Shown here: positions 42,001-45,000 of the stretch, in pieces
Numbering within the stretch: position 1 is the first letter of the stretch
How the letters are laid out: the number at the start of each line of letters is the position of its first letter
Made by a program: the position numbers
Source of the DNA: a virus
Reading direction: 5' to 3' (one strand)
Length of the DNA stretch: 64,000 bases
Virus record (IMG/VR): IMGVR_UViG_3300027628_000009
Span: 1,742-65,741 of that record

Positions 42001-45000
42001 TCAACATCAATTACAACAAAAGTTGGAATGATTTTTGGGTTTCTCATTCTACTAGCAATTTCTAAGGCCTGTTCGTTTGATATTCTAGCAATATCTGATT
42101 CAGTTAATTTCTTCAAAATTTTTTCTCCTAACTATCACCTATTTTGCGTTGTTTTGAATATATCATTAATATTAATACTATCTTTACCTTGCTTTTCAAT
42201 ACCAACAAATCTACTCTTAATTTTTAAAACAACTTGTGAGTGAAACTGATTTGTTTGCTTTTTGTTAGTTGCTTCCACTTTCATTATATTGCTCCTTTAA
42301 ATTGTAAGTTTTGCTAGTGCGTCTTTTCCACGCTGATTAAGATGGTCAATTTCTATCTCTACATTTTTACCATGATAAAAATGAACACCGTTATCAGGAG
42401 AAAATTTAACAAAATTTGTTATTATTCTACTACTACTATTATCACGGTGTTTCAAAAAAATAAATTCTTTTTTTTGTTGGGTGTTGCACTACAACATTCC
42501 TTGCCATATCCAATAATGTTCTATCACGGAAAGAATATCTAATTTCTTCAATGATTTCAGCTATATCAACTGTTTCTTTTTCTGAATCTTTTTCAGGATA
42601 ACCCATATCCTTCAACATTTCATATTTACCTTCAAGTTGAGCCAAAACTATATTGTGTGAATTAATACTTTTAACATAAGAATTTACCCATACAGAATTA
42701 ATTCCTTTTTCACCGTTAATGTGTTTAATAAGGTCATTGGCTTCTTCTTCAATTCGTTTCTTTTTAAATGCAATTTGCTTTTCTAATTCCTGCAAGTATT
42801 CTTTCATGGTGTTCTCCTTTATATTGCTTTTCCAACAGATATAATAAGTGGGTGTATTTTTGCACCCTTCACTCTTTGTAGAAAAAATTTAGCTTCATCT
42901 AAAGAGTAGATACAGTGTGGGTTAAATTCACCAACAATCTTATCTAAGTACCAGTCATAATAACTATTTTCATTAGTTTTAACGGTGTATAATTCTTTCA
43001 TTGATTGTTCTCCTTAAATGATTTCATTCTTCATCACCTGTTACATTATCTCTAATGAATCTGTAAACTTCATCCCTAACTTCAGTGTCGTTCCAATCCC
43101 ACTGTTTAGCTTTTTCTTTAATCTCTACTGGAAGAAGATTGCCGATTGCTTTAATAACATCTTTTGAAGGTGTAGAACTGAATATATCTGTATAACTGGA
43201 TTCAATTTGGTCATACATTTCATCACGTTCTTCTTTAAGGACTTCTTCATTCTTGATTAATTTGTTTATTTCAGCGATTATTTCCAATTCATCATGTTCA
43301 AGGCTATCTACTGCAAGTAATTCAATTCTAAGCTTGTATATACTGTCATTATGAGCCACAAATAGCTTGTCCGGCATTTTAACTGAATAATGAGCATTGA
43401 ACCCTTTGATTTGATTTAAGACGTTCTGAAGTTTGCGTATAACGAATAGGTTGTTTCTTTCCATTGTGTATGTCTCCTTTAGATTCTTTTTTGAAATTAT
43501 TTTACCCTTTTCCGCAAACTTTATTTTACTCCTAGCCACATCTAATTGATGAAGCTAGGAGATTGGTAATTAATTTTAGTTAATACTGTTTTGCAATTCG
43601 TTAAGTTTATGTTCATAATATTTGGTTCTACATTTGGCGATTCCGATTGCTCCGAAAACGATAATTAATGAAACAGCCAATATCGTGTGCATTTTCCTAC
43701 AACTCCTTATATTTGGATGAATATTTCTTTAGATTGTGTGATATACTTACAGGAAAGGAAAAAGGAGTTGTGGCTCCAATTTCCCTTGAAACTTATTTTT
43801 TAAGCTTCTTCTGTTTTTTGCTTTCAAGTTCTTGCTTGAGTTTTTTGGTTTCTAGCTTTGCTTTAGAACCATTGAAGAATTCTGTTCTAAACTTAGCTAG
43901 ACCATAAACCAAGCTGATAACTGAAAGTGTTATAGCAAGTATATCCACTATGTAACCTCCTTCCCTTAACTTAATTTAATTATACATCAGTATGCCCAAA
44001 AAGTCAACAGTTTAATTAACTGTTTTTATGAAGTGTTATTATATCAAGGGTTTTACCGATTTATCTAAGTTAACAGTTTAATTGTGGTGAAAAACTCCTT
44101 AATTAACTTCTCATTAATTCTTCCATTGAATAGAGTTAAATCCCCACAACTCCGTTACTTCCTTGTCGTGTCCTTCATAACGTGAATAACCGCCAACTGG
44201 ATAACCATTTTCAAACTTAATTTTACTTTCATCAAACAAGTCTTGAACAATGATAGTTTGACTATTTTCTTTTAAATATTCCTTTACATCATTTCTGATT
44301 TTCTTTGTAAGTTCATAGCTTTCACTTATAGGAATACTCATTAAAATTTCTTTATTTTCAGGATTCACAAGAACATATCCTTCAACTTCATCATGATAAA
44401 AATTATATTCTTTTATGCTCATTTCATGGTTCCTCCATCAATTTATATTTTGTCTGTCCATACTACCAGTCTTTCAAAGTTATCAATCTTTGCTGAAATT
44501 TCTTTTAAATCTTCAACAAGACTGGTTATAACATTGTTGTCTCCTCTCAACTGGTAATCCTAAATTATTCACTATATCTTCACGCTTTTCCAGCAACTTA
44601 TTATAGTGTGATTGCAGTTGTGAAAAACTATATCCCACTTTATTATCCATGATTTCCTCCGTATCAATATTCTTCTTCTTGAATCCGTTCAATCTCCGTT
44701 TTCATTAGTCCGATATCTTGTTGTAATTTTCTATATTGTTGAACACTTTTGTATTTATCAACAAGCTTTTGTTGCTGGTCATATGCCTTAACTATATTTT
44801 TCTTTAGTTCCTTTACCTTGTCGTTATCATAAGGGTGTATCGCATAAGGGTTTAACTCCAAAATTCCACCATCTTTCTACAATAAAACTTGGATTTTATT
44901 TGGGATAAAATATCCCTTTTAATGCTTCTACACCTTTTTCTGCGTCACTTTTAAACCAATCATTTCTAAGATAATCGTCTATATTATCAATAGCTGAATT

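Follow-up and report, generated by a model that had tools for sequence, protein, structure and literature searches.

We analyzed a 64,000-nt stretch of viral DNA (hereafter the window; bases 1742-65741 of the 92.5-kb IMG/VR virus record IMGVR_UViG_3300027628_000009, a record rated complete) and concentrated on a locus of its minus strand that encodes two tandem small peptides, here called A and B. By analogy, the mRNA of A looks like a type I toxin mRNA that lacks a demonstrated antitoxin RNA. We regard it as nearly an even prospect, on the basis of structure modelling, that the expression of these two paralogous membrane peptides is governed in cis by the fold of their own mRNA, which would allow either A or B to be made. 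The extreme fold of the A mRNA, with a long-distance helix over the start codon of A, is the strongest feature of the locus, and it was omitted from an earlier note on this DNA that had proposed control of the two peptides by an antisense RNA.

Two paralogous peptides and the fold of their mRNA

Gene A (43793-43948, minus strand; 51 amino acids, GTG start) is called as a gene in public sets and is preceded by the Shine-Dalgarno (SD) sequence AAGGAGG at 43956-43962, 7 nt before the GTG. Gene B (43576-43692, minus strand; 38 amino acids, ATG start) has the SD sequence AAGGAG 10 nt upstream. Peptide A consists of an N-terminal transmembrane helix followed by a lysine-rich tail of about 30 amino acids, with a net charge of about +8, and peptide B consists of an N-terminal transmembrane helix and a short tail of 17 amino acids. 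Both are shorter than 60 amino acids, and each has the hydrophobic N-terminal helix of about 20 residues and the strong SD that are expected of a type I toxin gene. Judged by their sequences, A and B are paralogues. A BLASTP alignment covered 23 residues without gaps (9/23 identical, 17/23 positive, E=1e-5), and the two peptides were reciprocal best non-self matches among the 2804 six-frame stop-to-stop segments of the whole phage (E 0.04 and 0.016). The common core ILA...G(L/I)AK.RT..(F/Y)(F/Y), to which the earlier note had drawn attention, is present in both.

The minus-strand transcript from 43975 to 43500 was predicted to fold at -116.9 kcal/mol (z -5.8 relative to dinucleotide shuffles), and the minus-strand segment 43740-43979 ranked second among 1538 window-strands in a composition-corrected 240-nt scan of the whole phage. 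We compared the A transcript with codon-randomized versions in which the peptide and the flanking sequences were held fixed (300 nulls per test). The native A transcript folded at -72.3 kcal/mol, relative to -45.9 ± 4.0 kcal/mol when synonymous codons were resampled (z -6.6) and -53.0 ± 3.5 kcal/mol when the gene's own synonymous codons were permuted (z -5.5), and none of the 300 nulls reached the native value in either test. The open reading frame (ORF) of A by itself gave z values of -3.7 to -4.1 against the synonymous-codon nulls, and the B region was less structured than such nulls (z +1.5 to +2.2). Because the synonymous-codon nulls were far less stable than the native sequence, the codon choice in A has evidently been shaped to build RNA structure.

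Four elements of the predicted fold on the minus strand are relevant to the expression of A and B. In the helix H1, a 5' arm comprising the GUG start as well as codons 2-5 (43935-43948, paired with a probability of about 1.0) pairs with a 3' arm at 43736-43750, located 43 nt past the stop codon of A; this helix has 14 bp and a bulged A at 43739, and its 3' arm holds the word TGATATACT on the plus strand. When the start regions of 105 genes were ranked by their duplexes with downstream sequence, H1 was first, at -18.3 kcal/mol (median -7.6, standard deviation 2.5). The second element, H2 (43821-43927), lies inside ORF A and is a long, imperfectly paired hairpin of 36 bp, and the third, HP1 (43788-43808), is an 8-bp hairpin with the stop codon of A in its 3' arm. 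The fourth, HP2 (43754-43787), is a two-tier hairpin that carries an anti-SD sequence, CCACAACUCCUU (43773-43762), in its loop and 3' arm. We rejected HP2 as a true intrinsic terminator, as its upper stem is no more than 4 bp long and the U run is taken up in the lower one.

In the finished A transcript, the SD of A was predicted to be free (paired 0.03) and the start codon and the next 11 nt to be paired (p ~1). In nascent RNAs of 45-225 nt, the SD of A was instead predicted to be paired at 0.5-0.75, in a local hairpin with CUUUC (43927-43923). The anti-SD, the 5'-3' long-distance helix and the nascent hairpin are the features of a structure-inert type I toxin mRNA, and all three were found here in silico.

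The anti-Shine-Dalgarno repeat and a possible either-or switch

The SD region of B, AAGGAGUUGU (43699-43708, minus strand), is the exact complement of 43762-43771, consistent with the statement in the earlier note that an anti-SD complementary to the ribosome-binding site of B is present in the mRNA. Written as DNA, ACAACTCCTT (43699-43708) and AAGGAGTTGT (43762-43771) form a perfect 10-nt inverted repeat whose arms are 53 nt apart. We searched for a perfect upstream complement within 120 nt of each of the 161 AGGAG sites on both phage strands, and a 10-nt complement was unique to the SD of B (the runner-up had 8 nt). We also ranked 105 predicted starts by the energy of the duplex between the 20 nt ahead of the start and the 120 nt upstream; the B anti-SD duplex (-17.0 kcal/mol) was third (median -7.9, standard deviation 2.9), and the repeat at the SD of B is therefore unusual rather than unique. 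The stronger upstream SD complements belong to two genes that lie outside the window, 73388-73765(-) at -17.6 kcal/mol and 83895-85184(-) at -17.4 kcal/mol (both given in window coordinates). Masking of SD sequences may be a recurrent theme in this phage.

A third copy of the repeat, GGAGTTGTGG (44144-44153, minus strand), is located in the 3' end of the upstream gene and is a perfect 10-nt complement of 43764-43773. The word GGAGTTGT occurs four times in the 92.5-kb phage, and three of these occurrences are found within 460 nt at the A/B locus, namely in the SD of B, in the anti-SD (on the opposite strand) and at 44153-44146 in the end of the upstream gene. The promoters and gene A lie between the two arms of a perfect 10-nt inverted pair (43764-43773/44144-44153). 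It is possible that the copy at 44144-44153 is a second anti-SD partner on read-through transcripts, or a DNA cassette boundary.

Helix H1 and the helix between the anti-SD and the SD of B cross each other, so that the two are mutually exclusive in a nested fold. For the full-length RNA in its free state, the helices predicted were H1 (p 1.0) and HP2 (p 0.9-1.0), and the anti-SD:SD-B pairing was about 0 (no more than 0.01). When the initiation region of A and 43810-43780 were treated as occupied, the anti-SD:SD-B pairing was predicted with p 0.98 and the SD of B was paired at 0.97. Covering the whole of ORF A gave the same predicted outcome as occupancy of the initiation and stop regions. In short intergenic fragments the energies of the two states differed by no more than about 1-3 kcal/mol (p 0.01-0.31). 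The 5' arm of HP2 (43787-43780) begins 6 nt after the stop codon of A, which at the level of prediction is the arrangement of an alternative-hairpin attenuator.

These predictions can be combined into a model in which promoters with AACAGTT sites would give rise to a leftward transcript of about 450 nt that encodes the two single-pass membrane peptides. At the nascent stage a local hairpin would cover the SD of A, and in the finished RNA H1 would pair the GUG and the first codons and so close cistron A. HP2 would store the anti-SD of 10-12 nt, and the closed RNA would leave the ribosome site of B open, so that B would be the default product. Ribosomes that open or traverse A would melt H1 and, at the stop codon, cover the 5' arm of HP2, and the anti-SD would then move onto the SD of B. 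Translation of A would thus shut off B and a closed transcript would yield B, an either-or outcome that would need no antisense RNA. The sequence shows the two genes with their SDs and promoters, the paralogy, the repeat and the statistics of the structure. We infer harm from A or a limit on its dose, formation of the folds in vivo and operation of the switch; B may antagonize or replace A in the membrane. In its most specific form, the model describes an antisense-free RNA switch in which ribosome traffic on A flips HP2 and masks the SD of the truncated paralogue B, with B as the default and A made in a brief co-transcriptional pulse. We consider this specific form a minority prospect, as modelled here.

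Several points weigh against control by the mRNA fold. All of the structure consists of thermodynamic predictions on one sequence. Only 8 of the 118 pairs are G-U, and the plus strand folds nearly as stably (-66.7 vs -72.3 kcal/mol), so that the strand that uses the fold is not proven; strand-specificity was clear only for the HP1/HP2 segment. A ribosome at a stop codon is transient, and HP2 may therefore simply re-form behind it. The equally strong complements at two other genes mean that the 10-nt repeat could belong to the tail of a null distribution. In addition, peptide A had no match to any toxin, holin or defence family, and a regulated early promoter is unlike the classical type I toxin setting.

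The proposed antisense RNA and other explanations

The earlier note had placed the start of a short plus-strand RNA over the anti-SD, and this gave rise to a type I toxin-antitoxin explanation in which an antisense RNA from about 43754 would pair with the 3' region of A and with the anti-SD, silence A and unmask B. We find this explanation improbable. It would account for the type I hallmarks of the A mRNA, and the plasmid-type maintenance genes of the phage (partition, Xer-like) make post-segregational killing sensible. Furthermore, the sole plus-strand signal, the extended -10-like word TGATATACT (43739-43747), lies in the A-B spacer and is placed and oriented as SR6 is between yonT and yoyJ (PMC5848175). 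However, no usable -35 element was found at a spacing of 16-18 nt from this word, its pattern TGNTATAMT was present at the level of chance (8 in the window vs 7.8 expected), and eight of its nine bases are set by complementarity to codons 2-4 of A, as it forms part of the 3' arm of H1. We found no credible plus-strand terminator, the only terminator-like call being about 10 nt after the putative start, and at 43754-43830 the fold of the plus strand was not more stable than those of shuffled sequences (z -0.6), in contrast to the minus strand of this segment (-21.1 kcal/mol, z -3.9). Neither a credible promoter nor a terminator for an antisense RNA gene was thus found at this position, where a weak promoter might escape sequence analysis. 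Likewise, the locus had no Rfam match and its peptides had no homology to known type I toxin families. Because an antisense RNA gene, which defines the type I toxin-antitoxin class, was sought and not found, A and B cannot be shown to belong to that class.

The predicted folds bear on the same proposal from the side of B. The SD of B was free of the anti-SD in the free RNA, leaving nothing for an antisense RNA to unmask, and when an antisense RNA covering 43830-43754 was modelled, B was predicted to be as open as before. What survives of the proposal is the switch between A and B, which is thermodynamically plausible (p from 0 to 0.98); the unmasking of B by an antisense RNA does not stand. 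The observations of the earlier note are largely borne out, except for the antisense RNA, and its interpretation has partial support.

Two further plus-strand candidates were rejected. An ORF of 45 amino acids at 43770-43907 would encode a hydrophobic peptide, which is most likely the phenylalanine/leucine mirror of the lysine codons of A, and its best SD is 2 nt from the start. This ORF is antisense to A, and a genuine plus-strand start at the putative site near 43754 would make it leader-proximal. A weak promoter-like site at 43590-43619 (9/12 matches) is one of 6 such sites in the region, relative to 8.3 expected.

Two explanations that do without RNA regulation were also weighed. A and B could be ordinary early small genes that are co-translated (for example for host takeover or superinfection exclusion), with hairpins that stabilize or partly terminate the transcript and with an anti-SD and H1 that are not regulatory. 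We think this rather unlikely, even though genes for small single-helix peptides are common in phages and several more are present in this one. HP2 followed by its U-rich run does resemble a weak terminator, the energy of the B anti-SD is matched by two other genes, and by our estimate chance would produce a few inverted repeats of 9-10 nt per 800 nt of AT-rich DNA, where three perfect ones were found. However, the synonymous-codon test shows that A in particular was selected for structure and B for openness. H1 is moreover the strongest start-region duplex among the 105 genes, the anti-SD is the longest in the genome, and the two alternative folds are predicted to be geometrically exclusive and close in energy.

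The other explanation operates at the level of DNA and appears very unlikely. The GGAGTTGT(G/A)G copies (44144-44153, 43764-43773 and 43697-43706) would be cassette boundaries or protein-binding sites, gene A and its promoters would be an inserted moron-like module, and the SD/anti-SD relation would be a by-product. Its appeal lies in the clustering of three of the four GGAGTTGT copies of the 92.5-kb phage, and in the perfect 10-nt pair that brackets exactly the promoters and gene A. Nevertheless, one of the copies is the functional-looking SD of B and another is in the loop and stem of a hairpin that is significant on the mRNA strand only. No relatives were found that show the cassette present or absent, and the codon-level structure inside A is left unexplained.

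Promoters, relatives and known systems

The sequence upstream of A contains tandem sigma-A promoters, P1 and P2, for a leftward A-B transcript of about 450 nt. The main promoter P2 (43979-44007, minus strand) has the elements TTGACT-17-TATAAT (11/12 matches), from which the transcript would start near 43972, and the upstream promoter P1 (44038-44067, minus strand) has TAGATA-18-TG-extended TATAAT (10/12 matches). A palindromic site, AACAGTT-N5-AACTGTT (44006-44024), which has zero mismatches on both strands, abuts or overlaps the -35 element of P2. A distal AACAGTT site (44067-44083), located just upstream of the -35 element of P1, is a 17-nt direct repeat of 44001-44017 with 94% identity. The pattern AACAGTT-N5-AACNSTT had 11 matches, relative to 0.56 expected, over the span 40746-56624. 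The A/B locus is part of an extended run of early genes that point leftward and bear this pattern at their promoters, in agreement with the placement of the operon behind an operator-flanked early promoter in the earlier note. The position of the sites, upstream of or overlapping the -35 elements, is compatible with either a repressor or an activator. On the 3' side of B, a minus-strand stem-loop at 43529-43561 (-20 kcal/mol, z -6.2; plus strand z -5.4) has no U tract, and it may be a 3' stabilizer, a processing site or an atypical terminator but is not a canonical terminator.

The phage has a GC content of about 32%. Its DNA polymerase III alpha is nearest to that of Geobacillus phage GR1 (50% identity) and is 42-44% identical to those of 86-92 kb siphophages infecting staphylococci and enterococci. 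Genes for an actin-like partition protein and for a Xer-like tyrosine recombinase make it plausible that the phage lives as a plasmid prophage. Among its other small genes, a 53-amino-acid mini-gene on the plus strand (P0008; ORF 36697-36858) lies in the plasmid-maintenance island and encodes a peptide whose hydrophobic helix leads into KKKK and then a polar tail. Its SD, AAGGAGGTGA, is 6 nt upstream of the ATG, the word TGCTATAAT is found further upstream at 36616-36624, and of all 240-nt windows in the phage the one that contains this gene (36660-36899, z -4.3) is the most structured; the region 36616-36900 holds a third toxin-like mini-gene beside A and B. Outside the window, a 45-amino-acid ORF at the window-equivalent position 73838-73975(-) combines a hydrophobic helix with a very basic tail of the KKRPSFKKRKNKFKK type, and is a candidate for a further small membrane peptide or toxin-like gene.

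Judged from sequence searches, the A/B family is an orphan with one outside relative. In a word-indexed search of 5.8 billion clusters, A matched only the phage's own peptide and P0002, a peptide of 50 amino acids that is 88% identical to A and is encoded on a 1,310-bp contig. P0002 differs from A by five conservative substitutions and the in-frame loss of one lysine codon, changes that are expected of a real coding sequence. When 1.84 billion representatives were searched exhaustively with a HMMER profile, nothing beyond P0002 and B was found, and blastn and tblastn searches of phages and plasmids found no relatives of the locus. No related loci were found when viral contigs were probed with A, both neighbour genes and the SprT-like gene, and searches with the exact DNA pattern in viral contigs, together with metagenome and genome contig searches, found no diverged relatives. 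A contig of 92,686 bp that is nearly identical to the phage is on record. A had no match in Pfam, PHROG or PADLOC and a single meaningless NCBIfam row (an O-succinylbenzoate-CoA ligase model, E 0.045), and B had no family match in Pfam, NCBIfam, PHROGs or PADLOC except for a meaningless JukB fragment (E 0.0065). Rfam had no match at the locus. The protein Atlas gave nothing above chance, its nearest named clusters being class II holins at a score of 0.75, which is below lead level.

The earlier note had correctly cited a precedent in the yonT-yoyJ/SR6 system of SPbeta, in which SR6 is a mapped, stable antisense RNA of 100 nt with its own promoter (PMC5848175). As in that system, the A/B locus is phage-borne and carries two small peptide genes in tandem on one transcript (PMC5848175). 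In each, the first peptide begins with a hydrophobic stretch and ends in a very basic tail, and regulation is centred, in our model as there, on the intergenic spacer and the ribosome-binding site of the second gene. Unlike A and B, YonT and YoyJ are not described as paralogues, and there is no sequence similarity between the two pairs; the cluster and representative searches, tblastn against phages and plasmids, and Rfam revealed no homology to yonT/yoyJ/SR6 in either peptides or RNA. An antisense gene is also unsupported here, and the SD of B would be addressed by a cis-acting anti-SD on the same mRNA.

Type I toxin mRNAs and loci are marked by SD/anti-SD pairs, by long-distance interactions between the 5' and 3' ends and by hydrophobic ORFs in tandem (PMC8594479), and PMC6733600 concerns metastable structures that form in such mRNAs during transcription. 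The systems hok/Sok, aapA/IsoA, dinQ and tisB (PMC8594479; see also PMC6733600, PMC5066626 and PMC9841398) share with the predicted fold of A a small hydrophobic ORF enclosed by a long-distance helix. Nascent hairpins that sequester the SD, and an extreme mRNA structure that is kept through codon choice, are likewise common to these systems and to A as modelled here. A differs in that its final helix would cover the start codon and not the SD, that no antitoxin RNA or processing site was identified for it, and that it stands behind a regulated phage early promoter with a paralogous second cistron wired to the same fold.

The modelled switch may also be compared with two other known systems. 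In attenuation of the ermC type, three RNA segments pair as either 1:2 or 2:3, and a ribosome on the upstream short ORF decides whether the downstream SD is free. The modelled A/B switch would be similar in that the alternative pairings are set by the position of a ribosome on the upstream ORF. However, its polarity is inverted, as translation of A is predicted to close the downstream SD; the upstream ORF encodes a full effector peptide that is also a paralogue of B, and no drug-dependent stalling is implied. The Clostridioides difficile toxins CD0956.2, CD2517.1 and CD2907.1, found in prophages and CRISPR loci, are type I toxins with lysine-rich tails and demonstrated antisense RCd RNAs. They resemble A in their length of about 50 amino acids, N-terminal hydrophobic helix and lysine-rich C-terminal tail, and in being encoded by phages, or by prophages of a plasmid-like kind, in low-GC Firmicutes, but they have no detectable sequence relationship to A.

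Type I toxins are usually recognized via their antisense partner, and the small membrane peptides of phages are numerous and almost wholly uncharacterized. Gene A brings together all the cis-RNA features of such a toxin, namely selected mRNA structure, a long-distance helix over the start codon, a nascent hairpin over the SD and an anti-SD, in an orphan peptide of a plasmid-like siphophage, with the fold coupled to a second, paralogous cistron. Even if the switch is not real, gene A is a clean case of codon-level selection for mRNA structure in a gene of 51 codons. If it is true, the phage would have a compact choice between two related peptides from one mRNA that requires neither a protein nor a small RNA, and the locus would provide a simple reporter system for ribosome-driven RNA refolding.

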